A stretch of 5,340 nucleotides of DNA from a virus. Its lineage: Duplodnaviria; Heunggongvirae; Uroviricota; Caudoviricetes. The translations under genes were made by a program, and so were the position numbers. The notes below the pieces were generated by a model. That model had not been told where the DNA came from, made no database searches, and saw only the letters and a list, made by a program, of their open reading frames with translations. The DNA lies in the IMG/VR virus record IMGVR_UViG_2541047120_000017; one strand, 5' to 3'. Positions 379 through 5,340 of this stretch are shown one piece after another. Position 1 is the first letter of the stretch. Each line of letters begins with the position of its first letter.

Positions 379-666
379 TCAGATAGAGAAGGGAAATTGT
401 CGCCGAGAATGTGTCACGCTTACAATCTCAATGCTTGAAGCAGCTACTCTGTACAGGATTATGTAGTTAGGGTGGGTCACGATCTCTCTCAATCCAGAAA
501 CCCGTTCGCTTGGTGGATATAAGTACGGATGCTCAGATAGAGGTAATACCGATGTTTCAATGCGTATTTTTAGTCTACGTGCTGCCGGTGGGTTCTCCTT
601 GGCGATGTAAGTTATGATCTGGCGCAAATCATCGCGAGCAGACGGTAGCCATAAAATGGGTAACAT
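379..666 (-). CDS. parE: ParE/RelE-family toxin of a type II toxin-antitoxin system (ParE2-like, 95 aa)
   Basis: ORF track 379..666. Motifs LWLPSARDDLRQIITYIA, LPLSEHPYLYPPSERVSGLREIV and HPNYIILYRV...IEIV fit the ParE fold. Its ATG overlaps the stop of the upstream small ORF (minus-strand TAATG at 668-664). Confidence 0.85.
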   Translation of the reverse strand: MLPILWLPSARDDLRQIITYIAKENPPAARRLKIRIETSVLPLSEHPYLYPPSERVSGLREIVTHPNYIILYRVAASSIEIVSVTHSRRQFPFSI

Positions 667-857
667 TACTCGCTCTTGTTAGTTACAGCAATTTGAGCAA
701 TAAGATTTTCCATTTCAGCCATTACCTCGTCATGTGGAATTGCGGGGCGAGTGTCTGCAAGGCTTGACGTTACTTTAGTGCGCAACCATTCGTTGTAACT
801 GTTTTCTTGTTCGGTAGTTTCGAATTCTGAAACTATCGGAGAAAGGGCTGTACCCAT
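666..857 (-). CDS. paaA: Small acidic antitoxin (PaaA2-like, 63 aa) partnered with the ParE toxin
   Basis: ORF track 666..857. GAGGAG lies 7 nt upstream of the ATG at 857. The stop is coupled to the toxin start. Size and the segment SEFETTEQENSYNEWLRTKV...RPAIPHDEV match the recalled PaaA2 antitoxin. Confidence 0.75.
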   Translation of the reverse strand: MGTALSPIVSEFETTEQENSYNEWLRTKVTSSLADTRPAIPHDEVMAEMENLIAQIAVTNKSE

Positions 858-884: not shown

Positions 885-1286
885 TCACGCCCGGCGGCTT
901 TTTTGTGCCGCCAGCCACCTAGCAATGGTTTCTTCCATTGATTTTTTCTTGTCTTTGATTTCTTGAAGCATTTTTTCTTGGTCTTCCTCAGGAAACGCAC
1001 TAAAAGCTTGGAGCAGTTCGCGTTGGCGAGGACCAATTTTCATCGTGTCAGGGGTGAAAATTTGCTCACACTCTTCAGGAGGCAATAAAAACCAATGCAA
1101 TGGATGCCCTGAAACCTCAACCAGTTTATCCAAACTTGAGGCTTTAGGTGTAGCCTTACCGCTGACCCATTGTTGAACAGTTTGTTGTGTCACACCAATT
1201 CTACGGGCAAGCTCAGCCTGGCTCCATCCAGTTTCCTGAAGAAGCTTGCTGATTCTGTACATAGATACTTCTAGGGCGCTCATCAT
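885..1286 (-). CDS. paaR: DicA/cI-type HTH repressor without a peptidase domain (PaaR2-like regulator; likely prophage maintenance repressor), 133 aa
   Basis: ORF track 885..1286. XRE-type HTH (SQAELARRIGVTQQTVQQWVSGK) and a C-terminal part (RELLQAFSAFPEEDQEKMLQE) parallel DicA architecture. It is divergent from the Cro-like gene. Tandem ATGATG start with no SD; alternative start at 1283. Confidence 0.85.
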   Translation of the reverse strand: MMSALEVSMYRISKLLQETGWSQAELARRIGVTQQTVQQWVSGKATPKASSLDKLVEVSGHPLHWFLLPPEECEQIFTPDTMKIGPRQRELLQAFSAFPEEDQEKMLQEIKDKKKSMEETIARWLAAQKSRRA

Positions 1287-1394: not shown

Positions 1395-1667
1395 ATGCTA
1401 GATAGCACTCGCGAAAAAATTAGGCAGAAATACACTCAGGCTGAAATAGGTCGTTATATGGGGGTCGCTCAACAGACTGTTTGGCAATGGTTTAGCTTTG
1501 GCGTTCCCCCAAAGCAGGTAATTCCGTTATGCCAACTAATGAAGTGGGAAGTTACCCCGCATGAAATCCGCCCAGATATTTATCCTAACCCAACCGACGG
1601 TTTACCTGTTGGATGTAAGGTTAACACATCAAATGCGCCGGAGTTGATTCATGAAAATCAAGCATGA
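1395..1667 (+). CDS. Cro-like HTH regulator of the YdaS type (90 aa)
   Basis: ORF track 1395..1667. Strong SD GAGGAGGG 4-5 nt upstream. HTH segment TQAEIGRYMGVAQQTVWQWF and the VTPHEIRPDIY motif are typical of YdaS-type Cro analogues. Divergent from the repressor. Confidence 0.8.
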   Translation: MLDSTREKIRQKYTQAEIGRYMGVAQQTVWQWFSFGVPPKQVIPLCQLMKWEVTPHEIRPDIYPNPTDGLPVGCKVNTSNAPELIHENQA

Positions 1668-2076
1668 ACACATCCGCATGGCGATGAATGCCTGGGCGCA
1701 TCCGGACGGCGAAAAAGTACCGGCTGCGAAAATTACCAAAGCGTATTTCGAGCTGGGAATGACGTTCCCGGAACTGTATGACGACAGCCATCCGGAAGCC
1801 ATGGCTCGCAATACTCAGAAAATTTTCCGCTGGGTGGAGAAAGACACTCCTGATGCGGTTAAAAAAATTCAGGCGTTGTTACCAGCGATCGAAAAAGCGA
1901 TGCCGCCTCCGCTGGTGGCCCGAATGCGCAGCCACAGTTCCGCTTATTTTCGGGAGTTGGTAGAGACGAAGGAACGGCTGGTGAAAGATATTGATGATTT
2001 CGTTGCATCAGCGATCGTTCTGTTCGATCAGATGAATCGTGGTGGCCCGGCAGGAAACACTCTGGCTGTGCATTAA
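1651..2076 (+). CDS. ydaT: YdaT-type protein (CII-like regulator family, 141 aa)
   Basis: ORF track 1651..2076. GGAG 7 nt upstream of the ATG. N-terminus MKIKHEHI and overall size match the recalled Rac YdaT. Overlaps the preceding gene by 17 nt. Confidence 0.8.
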   Translation: MKIKHEHIRMAMNAWAHPDGEKVPAAKITKAYFELGMTFPELYDDSHPEAMARNTQKIFRWVEKDTPDAVKKIQALLPAIEKAMPPPLVARMRSHSSAYFRELVETKERLVKDIDDFVASAIVLFDQMNRGGPAGNTLAVH

Positions 2077-2089
2077 TTGGGTAATAAAT

Positions 2090-2599
2090 ATGAGTAATGA
2101 CAAAAAATTGACACTGAGCGTTTACGAAAACAGTCCGCACATCTGGCGTGGCGGTTTATCTGATGTGGAGCTGGCAGAGTGGTTGATACATAAAGCTAAT
2201 GCGCTGCTCTGGCGTTTGTCAGCCAGAGAACAGCGCAAGGAAACCAGAATAAAGCTGGCTGATGCAGAAGCGTGTGCCGGGCTTATTGAGGATTATACAA
2301 ATCTTGGTATTTCTTCAGCAGAGAGTGATCCCATTCAGCCTCTGAGCAGGGAGTCAATCCAGCACGCTGGTTGTATGGCACATCTTGTAACTGCTCGTCA
2401 ACATGAGGTGGGTATTGGATCACTTCCGGCGGGATATTCGCTGATTCCAGAGCTGGTTGAAGCAAGAAAATCAGTTCAGAAAAAGAGAGATGACGCACTT
2501 CAATTATTGAGAGAGCACTATGGCGCGATACCAGAATGCGAACAGCGTCGATACCCTGAAGGTTATGAATGGATGCAGTCTCTTTTTGAAGTTCGCTAA
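2090..2599 (+). CDS. Hypothetical protein of unknown function (169 aa), start chosen at MSNDKK
   Basis: In-frame ATG at 2090, 13 nt after the ydaT-like stop. Hand-counted first-codon-position base use is coding-like (G about 34 percent), and CAG>CAA, AAA>AAG. The track ORF 2039..2599 would overlap ydaT. It competes with an antisense ORF at 2283-2738. Confidence 0.55.
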   Translation: MSNDKKLTLSVYENSPHIWRGGLSDVELAEWLIHKANALLWRLSAREQRKETRIKLADAEACAGLIEDYTNLGISSAESDPIQPLSRESIQHAGCMAHLVTARQHEVGIGSLPAGYSLIPELVEARKSVQKKRDDALQLLREHYGAIPECEQRRYPEGYEWMQSLFEVR

Positions 2600-2816
2600 T
2601 CAATATGTCGAGACGAAGGTATGTTTCGGCGCGCAGCCAGGCTCTGTAATCCGGGAGCATTTCGGGGCTGTTACACCAGCGGTTTGTTGCTGCAACATTT
2701 AATACATGAGCCTGATAAAGGCTTTTCAAAAAATACATGTCGAACCTCCTCTGGTTCTGTCGATTGGGAACCACAGATTATATCCGGAGGAAGGTTCGGC
2801 ACCAGATGAGGTAGCC

Positions 2817-3908
2817 ATGCGTGATTACGCAAAAGTTTCTCCGCGATTCTGGCTGGGAGAAACGGGGAGAGAACTTAGAAAGGCGGGTGCAGAAGCGCAA
2901 GTTGTTGCTTTTTACCTGATGACATCCCCTCACGCAAATATGCTGGGTTTGTATTACCTGCCAGTTTTATACCTTGCTCATGAAACCGGGCTTGGTCTGG
3001 AAGGGGCTTCAAAGGGGCTTAAAAGGGCTGTTGAAGCTGGTTTTTGTAGCTATGACCATGATGCAGAGATGGTCTGGGTCCATGAAATGGCAGCCTGGCA
3101 GGTTGGGGAAACGTTGAAGCCTGGCGATAACCGTTGTGCAGGTGTCAGGAATGAGTATGCATCATTACCTGAAAACGCTTTTCTGTCAGTGTTTTACGAC
3201 AGATATAAAACGGATTTCCATCTGGATGTGAGGCGGAATAATAGCCGAAATTCGGTAAGGGGCTTCGAAGGGGCTTTTAAGGGGCTTCGAAGCCAAGAAC
3301 AGGAACAGGAGCAGGAGAAAGAACAGGAACAGGACAAAAACACTATGGTTCATGGCAAAAAAAACACCACGAACCAGGCAGGGGATGTTCAGACCGTCAA
3401 TCCTGGTCAGCCAGCAGGCACGACACCGGAAGCCGATTCGGGCGCTGTGCAGCAGGTGATGACCGCAGGGTCGGAGCAATCACACCAACTGCAGCAGCCT
3501 GAAGCCGATTCCGCCATTCAGCGGGAAGCCGATCGGGTAGTCCCGGAAAGCACCGGGCAGTCTGTGGGACGAGTGGATTATCCGGATGTGTTCGAACAGG
3601 TCTGGCGGGAATACCCGTTGCGTGCTGGGGCAAACCCGAAGAAATCCGCTTTCAGTGCCTGGAAGGCCAGATTGCGCGAGGGGGTGCCACCAGAGACCAT
3701 GCTGGATGGTGTGAGGCGTTACGCGAGATACCTGGCGGCGACCGGGAAAGCGGGAACGGAATTTGTTCAGCGAGCGACGACGTTTTTTGGGCCGGACCGG
3801 AATTTTGAAAACCCCTGGTTGCTCCCGGTAAGCGGCACGAACAACCAGCGTTGTGTGAATCATATTTCTGAACCGGATACCGAAATTCCGCCGGGATTCA
3901 GGGGGTGA
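2817..3908 (+). CDS. Replication initiation protein (lambda O-like role; occupies the position just upstream of the DnaC-like gene), about 363 aa
   Basis: ORF track 2706..3908. Start preferred at the ATG at 2817 because GAGG lies 5 nt upstream, whereas the ATG at 2706 has no SD. N-terminal domain, low-complexity E/Q-rich linker and C-terminal domain. Iteron-like DNA repeats lie inside the gene. Immediately followed by the helicase-loader gene. Confidence 0.8.
   Translation: MRDYAKVSPRFWLGETGRELRKAGAEAQVVAFYLMTSPHANMLGLYYLPVLYLAHETGLGLEGASKGLKRAVEAGFCSYDHDAEMVWVHEMAAWQVGETLKPGDNRCAGVRNEYASLPENAFLSVFYDRYKTDFHLDVRRNNSRNSVRGFEGAFKGLRSQEQEQEQEKEQEQDKNTMVHGKKNTTNQAGDVQTVNPGQPAGTTPEADSGAVQQVMTAGSEQSHQLQQPEADSAIQREADRVVPESTGQSVGRVDYPDVFEQVWREYPLRAGANPKKSAFSAWKARLREGVPPETMLDGVRRYARYLAATGKAGTEFVQRATTFFGPDRNFENPWLLPVSGTNNQRCVNHISEPDTEIPPGFRG
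2988..3030. repeat. Iteron-like cluster A: GGGCTT-type motifs at 2988, 3004, 3014 and 3025 (AAGGGGCTTC / AAAGGGGCTT / AAAAGGGCTG)
   Basis: Direct repeats at 10-11 bp spacing inside the initiator coding sequence. Successive copies are read in different codon frames. Confidence 0.4.
3257..3289. repeat. Iteron-like cluster B: three tandem 11-bp units AAGGGGCTTCG / AAGGGGCTTTT / AAGGGGCTTCG
   Basis: Exact tandem repeats with 11-bp period. The three copies are translated in three different frames (RGF / EGAF / KGLR), so the repeat is a DNA-level feature. Confidence 0.5.
3297..3338 (+). repeat. Hexanucleotide tandem repeat (GAACAG)n, 7 units with variants, encoding an (EQ)n linker
   Basis: Units GAACAG GAACAG GAGCAG GAGAAA GAACAG GAACAG GACAAA read directly from the sequence. 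In frame with the initiator gene. Confidence 0.7.
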
Positions 3909-3914
3909 TGTGGC

Positions 3915-4661
3915 ATGAAAAACATTGCGGCAGCCGGGGTTCTTGAACGTATTCGCAGACTTGCACCACAGGCGTCGGTTCCACCGTACCGGACGGTGGA
4001 GGAGTGGCGGGAATGGCAACTTGCTGAAGGACGAAAACGCAGCGAGGAGATTAACCGCCAGAATCACCAGTTGCGGGTGGAAAAAATCCTGAATCGTTCG
4101 GGCATCCAGCCTCTGCACAGCAAATGCTCGTTTGCGAATTATCAGGTGCAGAACGACGGGCAAAAATACGCGCTGAGCCAGGCCAAATCCATAGCTGACG
4201 AACTGATGACCGGGTGCACGAATTTTGTGTTCAGCGGTAAAACCGGCACCGGGAAAAATCACCTTGCAGCGGCGATGGGTAACCGGCTGATGGCGAAGGG
4301 GCGCAGCGTGATTATCGTCACCGTGTCTGATGTCATGAGCGTGTTGCATGACAGCTACGACAACGGCAAATCCGGGGAAAAATTTTTACAGGAGCTTTGC
4401 AGTGTTGATTTGCTGGTCCTGGATGAAATAGGCGTTCAGCGGGAGACGAAAAACGAGCAGGTGGTATTACACCAGATAATTGATCGCCGGACAGCATCAC
4501 TGTGCAGTGTCGGGATGTTAACAAACCTGAATCATGCCGCAATGAGTACACTTCTTGGTGAGAGGATTATGGACCGCATGACCATGAACGGTGGTCGATG
4601 GGTGACGTTTAACTGGGATAGCTGGCGTCCAAATGTCAGCAATATGAGGGTTGTGAAGTAA
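3915..4661 (+). CDS. dnaC: DnaC-type AAA+ helicase loader (phage replication protein; YdaV-position), 248 aa
   Basis: ORF track 3915..4661. Walker A FSGKTGTGKNHLAAA, with the GKN variant characteristic of DnaC. Walker B LLVLDEIG. C-terminal WVTFNWDSWR resembles the DnaC C-terminus. SD GGGGGTGA upstream. Confidence 0.9.
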   Translation: MKNIAAAGVLERIRRLAPQASVPPYRTVEEWREWQLAEGRKRSEEINRQNHQLRVEKILNRSGIQPLHSKCSFANYQVQNDGQKYALSQAKSIADELMTGCTNFVFSGKTGTGKNHLAAAMGNRLMAKGRSVIIVTVSDVMSVLHDSYDNGKSGEKFLQELCSVDLLVLDEIGVQRETKNEQVVLHQIIDRRTASLCSVGMLTNLNHAAMSTLLGERIMDRMTMNGGRWVTFNWDSWRPNVSNMRVVK

Positions 4662-4682: not shown

Positions 4683-5340
4683 ATGGAAACCGTATCTGAC
4701 GCACTGAAAGCACTGAAAAAAGCCTCTTCACATGTGGTGGCAGCTCGCCTTGGAATTAGTCGTGAAGAGGCTGTCAACGAACTGTGGAAACTGAAACGCC
4801 GTGGAGAAGCGGATAACAAGGGGGCGATATGGTGGCTGACTCAGGCTGGTGAAAGTGAACCGGTGTCACCGGTACCGAAAGTGACGGCGCAAATGCTGAC
4901 AGAGGCGATTGAACAACATGGCCCACAAACGGCGGATGAACTGGCATTGATGTTCGGAATTACCTCCCGCCGGGCGAATTCATCGCTGGCAATGGCAATC
5001 AGCAAAGGGGGTCTGATTCGCGTGAATCAGGATGGTAAATTTCGTTACTGCATACCGGGCGTTGATTTACCGGCAGAGCCGAAAGCAGCATCCGTAGCTG
5101 AAACGGAGGGTAAAGCCCTTCCTCAGCCAGCTGGTGTTGCGTTACCAGTCCAGGAAACGGCTGCACAGGAAGAAATTAAAACAGAAGCGGTGGAGGACAT
5201 TGTGAAGTTGCAGCAATCGTTCACTGAAGCGAAAGCAGATGACCTGATTCTACCATCGCTGCATGTGGCTAACCGCGAGCTGCGCCGGGCGAAAAGTAAT
5301 GTTCAGAAGTGGGAGCGAGTCTGTGCTGCGCTACGGGAAC
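4683..5340 (+). CDS. Hypothetical protein, N-terminal 219 codons only (runs off the window end); two tandem winged-helix-like units
   Basis: ATG at 4683 with GGAGG 8 nt upstream; no stop codon to the window end (checked codon by codon). Not in the ORF track because it is truncated. Begins [44 protein letters not shown]. Confidence 0.7.

Follow-up and report, generated by a model that had tools for sequence, protein, structure and literature searches.

The DNA analyzed here is a stretch of 5,340 nucleotides from a virus of the class Caudoviricetes (IMG/VR record IMGVR_UViG_2541047120_000017), which we refer to as the window. It comes from a lambdoid prophage of Escherichia coli O157:H7, of which it covers the immunity and replication region. 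Many O157:H7 chromosomes match the window at 99.9-100% identity, and the chromosome of strain EDL933 (NZ_CP008957.1), aligned with it from 1,254,409 onward, shows a single mismatch as far as window position 4756. The subject of this analysis is a pair of open reading frames (ORFs) that are located on opposite strands between ydaT and the gene of an O-like replication initiator and that overlap tail to tail (Table 1). The leftward ORF has 151 codons and belongs to the ECs1072 family, and the rightward ORF has 169 codons. An earlier note on this DNA, made from the sequence alone, had suggested that the leftward unit may be an antisense RNA with a short translated start and not the gene of a full protein of 151 amino acids (aa).

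Published Cappable-seq data for EDL933, the sequence of which is identical at this locus, place the main transcription start site (TSS) of the ECs1072-family gene at minus-strand position 1,257,177 (PMC10469882, supplementary tables S6 and S7). This is position 2769 of the window; the start was found in six of the eight culture conditions with read scores of 19-52, and it confirms the leftward start near 2770 that the earlier note had postulated. The perfect minus-strand TATAAT, which lies 35 bp from the ATG of the O-like gene, had already been read in the sequence and was verified by a script. The coordinates given earlier for GGAGG (2749-2745), the 6-nt spacer, the ATG at 2738 and the 151 codons down to 2283 were all correct. 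When position 2750 is counted the Shine-Dalgarno sequence extends to AGGAGG; the spacer reads TTCGAC (2744-2739) and the stop codon occupies 2285-2283.

Taken by themselves the promoter and Shine-Dalgarno motifs are not beyond chance. TATAAT occurs twice over both strands of the window, with ~2.6 copies expected, and GGAGG-N4-9-ATG occurs three times. A consensus promoter scan missed the leftward promoter because its -35 hexamer (CTGGTG) is poor. The promoter is nevertheless real, since two independent lines of evidence point to it: the Cappable-seq TSS at 2769 and the conservation of the whole block in 22 lineages. In these lineages TTGGTGCCGAACC, a -10-like hexamer and then GAACCnnAGGAGGTTCGAC-ATG are kept, with coding sequences that have diverged to ~30% protein identity. 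The -35 block TGGTGCCGAAC is almost unchanged across the 22 lineages, other lineages have TATTCT, TATATC, GATAAT or TGnTAGCCT at the place of the -10 hexamer, and AGGAGG(T/C)TC..-ATG is present in 22/22.

The same region contains an imperfect inverted repeat that brackets the promoter and occurs in all lineages. One of its arms, GTCGAACCTCCT (2739-2750), lies over the Shine-Dalgarno sequence, and the other, GGAGGAAGGTTCGGC (2786-2800), is located in the promoter spacer; half-sites of the type GAACC/GGTTC occur four times. Because covariation in favor of an RNA hairpin is missing, the repeat could be a protein-binding site, and we consider it a candidate for such a function. A riboregulator formed by the leader and the inverted repeat was tried as an explanation and rejected: there is just a 5-bp hairpin around the Shine-Dalgarno sequence, compensatory changes are lacking and z = -1.0. 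A terminator scan detected no minus-strand terminator-like site between 2769 and 1914. An Rfam scan of the window with permissive thresholds gave only matches at chance level, none of them sensible at this locus.

Table 1. Genes and control elements of the window (positions are those of the window; HTH, helix-turn-helix; TSS, transcription start site).
Feature	Position	Strand	Remarks
ParE-like toxin	379-666	-	
PaaA/RelB-like antitoxin	666-857	-	
cI-like HTH repressor	885-1286	-	
cro/YdaS-like gene	1395-1667	+	
YdaT (cII equivalent)	1651-2076	+	
169-aa ORF	2090-2599	+	phrog_8304; follows ydaT in the early rightward operon; without RefSeq annotation
Tail-to-tail overlap	2283-2599		317 bp; codon position 1 faces 1, position 2 faces 3
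Weak TSS at the ECs1072 stop codon	2284	-	1,256,692 in EDL933; scores 1-7; follows the second TATAAT of the window (2297-2292)
Internal TSS in the ECs1072 ORF	2365	-	1,256,773 in EDL933; 8/8 conditions, scores 8-69; strength similar to that of the main TSS
151-aa ORF	2738-2283	-	ECs1072 family, WP_000273724.1, NF033230; related to phrog_5286
Divergent control region with imperfect inverted repeat	2739-2800		present in all lineages
Shine-Dalgarno AGGAGG	2745-2750	-	6 nt before the ATG
TSS of the leftward mRNA	2769	-	31-nt leader; 8 nt downstream of TATAAT
-10 hexamer TATAAT	2777-2782	-	promoter of the ECs1072-family gene
-35-like hexamer CTGGTG	2800-2805	-	17 nt upstream of the -10; TTGGTG in most other lineages
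O-like initiator	2817-3908	+	
DnaC-like ATPase	3915-4661	+	

The leftward ORF has the properties of a protein-coding gene. RefSeq annotates exactly the 151-codon frame as "ECs1072 family phage-associated protein" (identical to WP_000273724.1), and the NCBIfam hidden Markov model NF033230 matches it over profile positions 3-141 of 142 with 105.7 bits (E 2e-30; the curated cut-off is 70). The comparative analysis covered 24 distinct lineages from Escherichia, Salmonella, Klebsiella and Serratia, taken from annotated genomes, IMG/VR contigs and encoding contigs; all 24 have an intact frame, at identities down to 29%. Homologues of the ECs1072 family are 151-159 aa long and were all found in prophage contexts, namely in Escherichia, Salmonella, Klebsiella, Enterobacter, Raoultella, Serratia and Yokenella. 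Over the 139 nt of the gene that lie outside the overlap (residues 1-46) the divergence at the three codon positions is 0.31/0.21/0.52, and the ratio of nonsynonymous to synonymous substitution rates (dN/dS) is ~0.19. Judged from this pattern the protein is under purifying selection.

A structure prediction with AlphaFold2, based on eight sequences only, gave a compact, all-helical protein (pLDDT 89.5, pTM 0.86), in which the residues encoded by the overlap (47-151) mostly have a pLDDT above 85. An EWDH motif near the C-terminus is retained even in the absence of the plus-strand gene. Searches with PADLOC, Pfam and fold comparison returned no family, defence-system or fold match for either protein of the pair. 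A tblastn search of cultured phages with the window protein gave no match, and the same search with a diverged family member gave only distant matches in SfIV-like phages. Scans of genome contigs yielded no confirmed loci. In the literature searched ECs1072 has a single mention, in a microarray table.

These data do not agree with an antisense RNA that is translated only at its start. The frame is open in every lineage, it matches NF033230 well above the cut-off, its unique part has a low dN/dS, the predicted fold extends over the whole length, and neither a terminator nor an Rfam match was detected. As far as sequence comparison can tell, the leftward transcript is an mRNA for the full 151-aa protein and not mainly a non-coding RNA.

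Probable coding on both strands of the overlap

The 169-aa ORF on the plus strand shows its own signature of selection. For residues 1-64, which are encoded outside the overlap, the divergence at the three codon positions is 0.27/0.19/0.46 with a dN/dS of 0.08-0.15. RefSeq leaves positions 2090-2282 intergenic in the O157:H7 genomes examined, though they encode these residues. When 1.84 billion representatives were searched exhaustively with a profile, 22 clusters at 50% identity were obtained; the proteins are typically 146-163 aa long and the clusters align over profile positions 4 to ~145. The family has no Pfam or NCBIfam model. In most lineages a GGAG-type Shine-Dalgarno sequence precedes the start, and two family-wide motifs, LGLSxxESDPIxPLSxEAIQFD and PVGYSLLPDL, are encoded inside the overlap. 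Together with the conserved Shine-Dalgarno sequence of the leftward gene, the GGAG-type sequence is indirect evidence that both frames are translated. The earlier note had treated the plus-strand ORF as a real coding sequence, and both the low dN/dS outside the overlap and the 22 clusters bear this out. On this comparative evidence the 169-aa ORF is a second real, conserved gene.

The last 317 bp of the minus frame are indeed antisense to this gene, as had been proposed. The overlap was found in all of the 20 lineages in which both genes are intact. It is always convergent, has a single frame relation and spans 257-323 nt. The two proteins diverge in step, with identities to the window proteins of 0.30-0.89 and 0.29-0.87, respectively.

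Because standard dN/dS is uninformative in this frame relation, we used a randomisation test and a test of reciprocal conservation. In the former one protein sequence was kept fixed, its synonymous codons were randomised and the stops in the opposite frame were counted for each lineage. There are 0 stops in either frame in 20/20 lineages, with 1.1-5.5 expected per lineage over the 83-105 plus-frame codons of the overlap. The probabilities for individual lineages range from 0.0007 to 0.26 for the plus frame and from 0.004 to 0.09 for the minus frame. A lineage without the plus gene has 3 stops in that frame.

The synonymous p-distance (pS) was compared among 13 clade representatives with bootstrap intervals. 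Outside the overlap pS is saturated; it amounts to 0.74 and 0.78 in the unique parts of the two genes and to 0.76 in the part of the minus gene that is not overlapped in most lineages. Within the overlap it is 0.43-0.52 in both frames, and the bootstrap intervals do not overlap those obtained outside.

For the test of reciprocal conservation the identity of each protein was compared with a null value, which is predicted from the conservation of the other protein alone. In the plus frame of the overlap the identity is 0.356 versus a null of 0.179 +/- 0.006, and the number of stops per sequence is 0 versus 2.65. The corresponding values for the minus frame are 0.408 versus 0.168 +/- 0.006 and 0 versus 2.90 stops. 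Two control frames gave a different picture: the frame opposite the unique part of the minus gene has an identity of 0.19 (null 0.16) with 1.3 stops (null 2.1), and the frame opposite the unique part of the plus gene has 0.25 (null 0.19) with 3.0 stops (null 3.75). By this measure each frame of the overlap is about twice as conserved as the other protein explains, and the controls are near the null. A sliding window analysis indicated that plus-frame constraint leads up to ~2390 and minus-frame constraint from ~2375 rightward; positions 2283-2360 are strongly conserved at all three codon positions.

The results also bear on an argument that had been made about the frames. The hand counts of first-position bases in the earlier note were accurate (plus frame G 36/105, or 34%; minus frame G 29/105, or 28%, and C 34%). 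The preference for the plus frame that was drawn from them has no force, because both frames are constrained in the overlap and the base composition is then uninformative.

Taken together, it is likely that the locus combines a real promoter, a full-length leftward protein, a second coding gene and an overlap that codes on both strands. Two conserved genes that share DNA in opposite directions are a rare case, and here a well-supported one.

The cassette and its surroundings

Both genes, together with the leftward promoter and leader, travel as a cassette of ~0.75 kb through lambdoid and P2/P4-like prophages of the Enterobacterales. In Rac-like E. coli prophages it sits between ydaT and the replication genes, in lambdoid prophages of Klebsiella and Serratia directly after cro, and in Salmonella elements between Cox- or integrase-side genes and Ash/RecE-side genes. 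In every context the plus gene runs in the direction of the surrounding early operon, against which the minus gene is oriented. A further plus-strand gene begins 10-15 nt past the -35 hexamer.

The ~70-nt promoter/leader (window 2739-2810) behaves as a portable expression cassette, because it also precedes unrelated leftward genes in other prophages. Besides the window, it was located at 3470-3555 in L006, at ~2501-2602 in L053 and at ~2501-2583 in L054. A second 151-aa gene lies behind it in a Salmonella element, and in other E. coli prophages it is followed, in the slot between ydaT and the replication genes, by a 131-aa gene or an 83-aa gene. From these arrangements the slot looks like a hot spot for cargo genes.

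The leftward protein has a distant relative (E 1e-17) in Shigella phage SfIV (gp36 region, L113 2345-3005) and E. coli phage Kati (L114). This relative faces a convergent ORF of 68 aa with an overlap of just 29 nt, and the similarity of the small ORF to the 169-aa family is weak (14 bits) and limited to the N-terminal part. The long overlap may have arisen by a C-terminal extension of the plus gene over an older gene; we offer this as a lead only.

Two further leftward TSSs are located within the ECs1072 ORF, at 2365 and 2284 (Table 1). The start at 2365 is preceded by TTGACG-18-TGnCATACA, of which the -35 is not kept outside the closest lineages. RNAs that start at these two sites would be complementary to the mRNA of the 169-aa gene in its 5' half, and possibly to that of ydaT; they come nearer to an analogue of oop than the mRNA does.

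The wider window connects the cassette to a prophage that has been studied in some detail. A perfect copy of the published YdaT operator TTGATTN6AATCAA (PMC9986795) lies at 1644-1661, at the junction of ydaS and ydaT. This copy ties the window to the regulatory circuit of prophage CP-933P, which has been described together with the paaR2-paaA2-parE2 unit (PMC8630535); the counterparts of this unit are found at 379-1286. An additional YdaT-controlled element was considered at 2586-2603, where a copy of the operator with two mismatches coincides with the end of the 169-aa gene. It was dismissed, as the closest lineages are without it and the total count of such copies equals that expected by chance.

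The strongest Cappable-seq TSS of the region (scores ~360-650) is located at 1286 on the minus strand. The mRNA of the cI-like repressor is leaderless, because this position is the first base of its start codon; the lambda cI mRNA from PRM is also leaderless. The published Cappable-seq tables contain two more leftward TSSs, one at 2902 inside the O-like gene (6/8 conditions) and one at 1610 just upstream of the YdaT operator (8/8 conditions). The latter is probably the start of the PRE-like promoter that has been described for CP-933P. Two further features are located to the right of the cassette. The O-like protein contains a low-complexity linker, QEQEQEKEQEQ, which joins two conserved halves (window 3290-3345). 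Past 4756 (positions 4757-5340) the window departs from EDL933, inside the DUF1627 gene, and the sequence divergence indicates a mosaic junction at this point.

Alternative explanations

A first alternative is compatible with the reading preferred here, i.e. two genes that both code across the overlap. The leftward mRNA, and above all the RNAs from 2365 and 2284, may regulate the 169-aa gene, ydaT and the replication genes, with the protein as a separate cargo that serves, for example, in exclusion or defence in the lysogen. There are three leftward TSSs in lysogen cultures, and the one at 2365, with a strength near that of the main TSS, was found in all eight conditions; the promoter elements of 2365 and 2284 are, however, not conserved beyond the closest lineages. 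Rightward transcription has to traverse the whole unit before it reaches the O-like and DnaC-like genes, but terminators or processing sites were not identified. That the same promoter/leader drives unrelated leftward cargo in other prophages also fits this explanation, whereas no defence-system model matches either protein. We regard it as rather unlikely.

Several observations weigh against coding on both strands. The AlphaFold2 prediction for the 169-aa protein is poor (pLDDT 55, pTM 0.26). Standard dN/dS inside the overlap is near 0.6-1.2 in each frame, with values of 0.4-1.3 overall, a range that is expected for this frame relation, and the per-lineage probabilities of the stop test are not independent because the lineages are related. 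A search for evidence of translation in the supplements of one ribosome-profiling paper on overlapping genes in EDL933 found nothing on the locus. An N-terminal frameshift in the 169-aa gene is the same in two independent assemblies of one lineage (L008, ~2553-3058, and L009); a second lineage also has a frameshift in this gene (L052, ~2071-2771) and a third lacks it (L006, L007). The ECs1072 gene is intact in all three. The 169-aa gene is hence dispensable. In L008 the portion of the overlap downstream of the frameshift still has 0 stops with 5.1 expected, and the sequences suggest that the frameshifts in L008, L009 and L052 are either a recent inactivation or an unrecognised recoding event.

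These points could mean that the leftward gene alone codes across the shared stretch, and that the plus frame is a shadow ORF or encodes a protein of ~65-100 residues with tolerated read-through. The poor prediction of the 169-aa protein and the three lineages with a broken or absent gene would then be expected. The same holds for the dN/dS of ~1.0-1.3 in its residues 101-169, for the fact that RefSeq and NCBIfam recognise the leftward gene only, and for the SfIV/Kati relative with its 68-aa partner and 29-nt overlap. However, a frame without function should not stay free of stops over 83-105 codons in 20/20 lineages when 1.1-5.5 are expected; the same antisense frame does contain stops at the expected rate outside the overlap, and it contains stops in the lineage without the 169-aa gene. 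The plus-frame identity of 0.356, compared with 0.179 +/- 0.006 expected, and the family-wide motifs of the 169-aa protein within the overlap argue in the same direction. Furthermore, the synonymous divergence of the leftward frame falls exactly where the plus ORF is present. Coding by the leftward gene alone is for these reasons improbable.

It is very improbable that the minus transcript acts chiefly as a regulatory antisense RNA of the oop type, translated at most over a short initial part, and that the plus gene is the sole coder in the overlap: the position and orientation of the transcript like those of lambda Po/oop, the three TSSs antisense to the plus gene and the lead of the plus-frame coding signature over 2283-2390 are outweighed by a 151-codon frame kept in 24/24 lineages with identities as low as 29%, the presence of a strong Shine-Dalgarno sequence and ATG in 22/22, the dN/dS of ~0.19 and codon-position pattern (0.31/0.21/0.52) of the unique part, a confident fold prediction that spans the overlap-encoded residues, the failure to find a terminator or an Rfam family, and the persistence of the EWDH motif where the plus gene is absent.

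Known systems and a possible expression switch

The lambda oop RNA is a non-coding RNA of 77 nt, which runs to an intrinsic terminator in the 3' end of cII. The earlier note had seen a mirror image of oop and its promoter Po in the present locus. The geometry agrees: a leftward promoter with its TSS at 2769 is placed between the cII-like ydaT and the replication initiator gene, it is active under rightward repression, and its transcript is antisense to early-operon RNA; the complementarity to the 169-aa gene is certain. The nature of the product does not agree. In place of a short, terminated non-coding RNA the window has an mRNA for a conserved 151-aa protein, with no terminator found, and its antisense partner is a protein gene other than cII.

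Coliphages 186 and P2 have face-to-face promoters, with transcriptional interference between convergent lytic and lysogenic promoters. Here too convergent lysogenic and lytic units overlap, and this could enforce mutually exclusive expression. What overlaps in the two phages is a short stretch between regulators, either non-coding or 5', whereas the window has 317 bp of coding overlap between two proteins that do not resemble regulators, and here the interference would be a prediction.

Antisense overlapping genes have been described in E. coli O157:H7 and in Pseudomonas, including ano, asa, three genes of EDL933, olg1 and olg2 (PMC5960689, PMC6294744, PMC9927249, PMC8850804). They share with the present pair the coding of proteins on opposite strands and the kind of evidence, i.e. 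avoidance of stops, purifying selection and a promoter and Shine-Dalgarno sequence of their own. Most of them are ORFs embedded in an older gene (PMC5960689, PMC9927249, PMC8850804), and the Pseudomonas pair has been described as evolutionarily novel (PMC8850804). In contrast, the window pair is known from sequence comparison and consists of two families of similar size; in several genera of the Enterobacterales both have diverged in parallel, to ~30% identity. Their tail-to-tail overlap spans 257-323 nt and leaves each protein an N-terminal domain outside it. According to a survey of 929 genomes, negative selection does not generally act on long antiparallel ORFs (bioRxiv 10.1101/724807); the window pair would therefore be an exception.

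The paaR2-paaA2-parE2 unit of CP-933P (PMC8630535) is, like the present cassette, a small unit with its own promoter, which is oriented against the lytic operon, transcribed in the lysogen and able to move between unrelated prophage backbones. The cassette differs from it in that it has no match to a toxin, an antitoxin or a defence system, and in that some of its DNA is shared with a partner gene, which it carries on the lytic strand. The two proteins belong to uncharacterised families (NF033230, phrog_5286 and phrog_8304), which are apparently listed separately. NCBIfam and RefSeq hold one of the two families only, and in the NCBIfam, RefSeq and PHROG entries we saw no record that both always occur on overlapping opposite strands.

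The arrangement suggests a mechanism by which the two genes could be expressed in turn. The sigma-70 promoter (CTGGTG, 17 nt, TATAAT) starts the mRNA at 2769, and the consensus Shine-Dalgarno sequence and the ATG at 2738 would direct translation of the full ECs1072-family protein. In the lysogen, with the rightward promoter repressed, the leftward gene would be transcribed from a promoter of its own. Once the prophage is induced, polymerases moving rightward would cross the leftward gene on their way to the replication genes, and the leftward gene would then be silenced by promoter occlusion, collision of polymerases and double-stranded RNA. Leftward transcription could in turn damp leaky rightward read-through, as lambda oop does. 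The lytic and lysogenic programmes should interfere with each other, because rightward transcription must cross the entire leftward gene. In the EDL933 Cappable-seq data the leftward gene is transcribed in lysogen cultures and pR-like activity is only weak, with a weak rightward TSS at 1373 as the sole sign of transcription of the plus strand.

We infer this switch, and this in itself counts against it. That the overlap acts as a reciprocal switch that makes expression of the two genes mutually exclusive is a tentative proposal, which we think somewhat less likely true than false. A pairing of a lysogen factor with an early lytic antagonist is more doubtful still. The broader picture has a chance that falls just short of even. 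It holds that both frames of the overlap are translated into functional proteins, that the cassette is a mobile unit of two ancient, co-evolving proteins, and that the shared DNA also works as a switch by which only one of the two is made at any time. The two could be, for example, a factor for exclusion or defence and its antidote.

Parts of this locus were already known: the leftward gene is annotated (NF033230) and its TSS is contained in a published table. Our literature search found no paper on a conserved convergent neighbour or on a constant opposite-strand overlap of the two families. The conserved second gene and the constant overlap appear to be unreported. The leftward unit should be treated as a gene and not as an oop-like RNA, and its mRNA may have a regulatory antisense role besides coding. 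The conserved gene at 2090-2599 is without RefSeq annotation in hundreds of E. coli genomes, and a conserved leftward promoter/leader cassette that drives different cargo at the same slot has now been identified.

It is disputed whether bacteria and phages maintain long coding overlaps on opposite strands, and annotation pipelines discard one of the partners. The pair described here offers a clean comparative case, with purifying selection on each unique domain, an overlap that lasts through divergence to ~30% identity and controls that resemble the null. It is also experimentally tractable, since it is present in prophages of E. coli O157:H7 and Klebsiella, and, with YdaT and PaaR-PaaA-ParE as neighbours, it provides a test bed in a prophage immunity region that has been studied well. 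If both frames are functional and the switch operates as proposed, no antisense overlapping gene pair described so far in bacteria or their phages would be as deeply conserved as this one.

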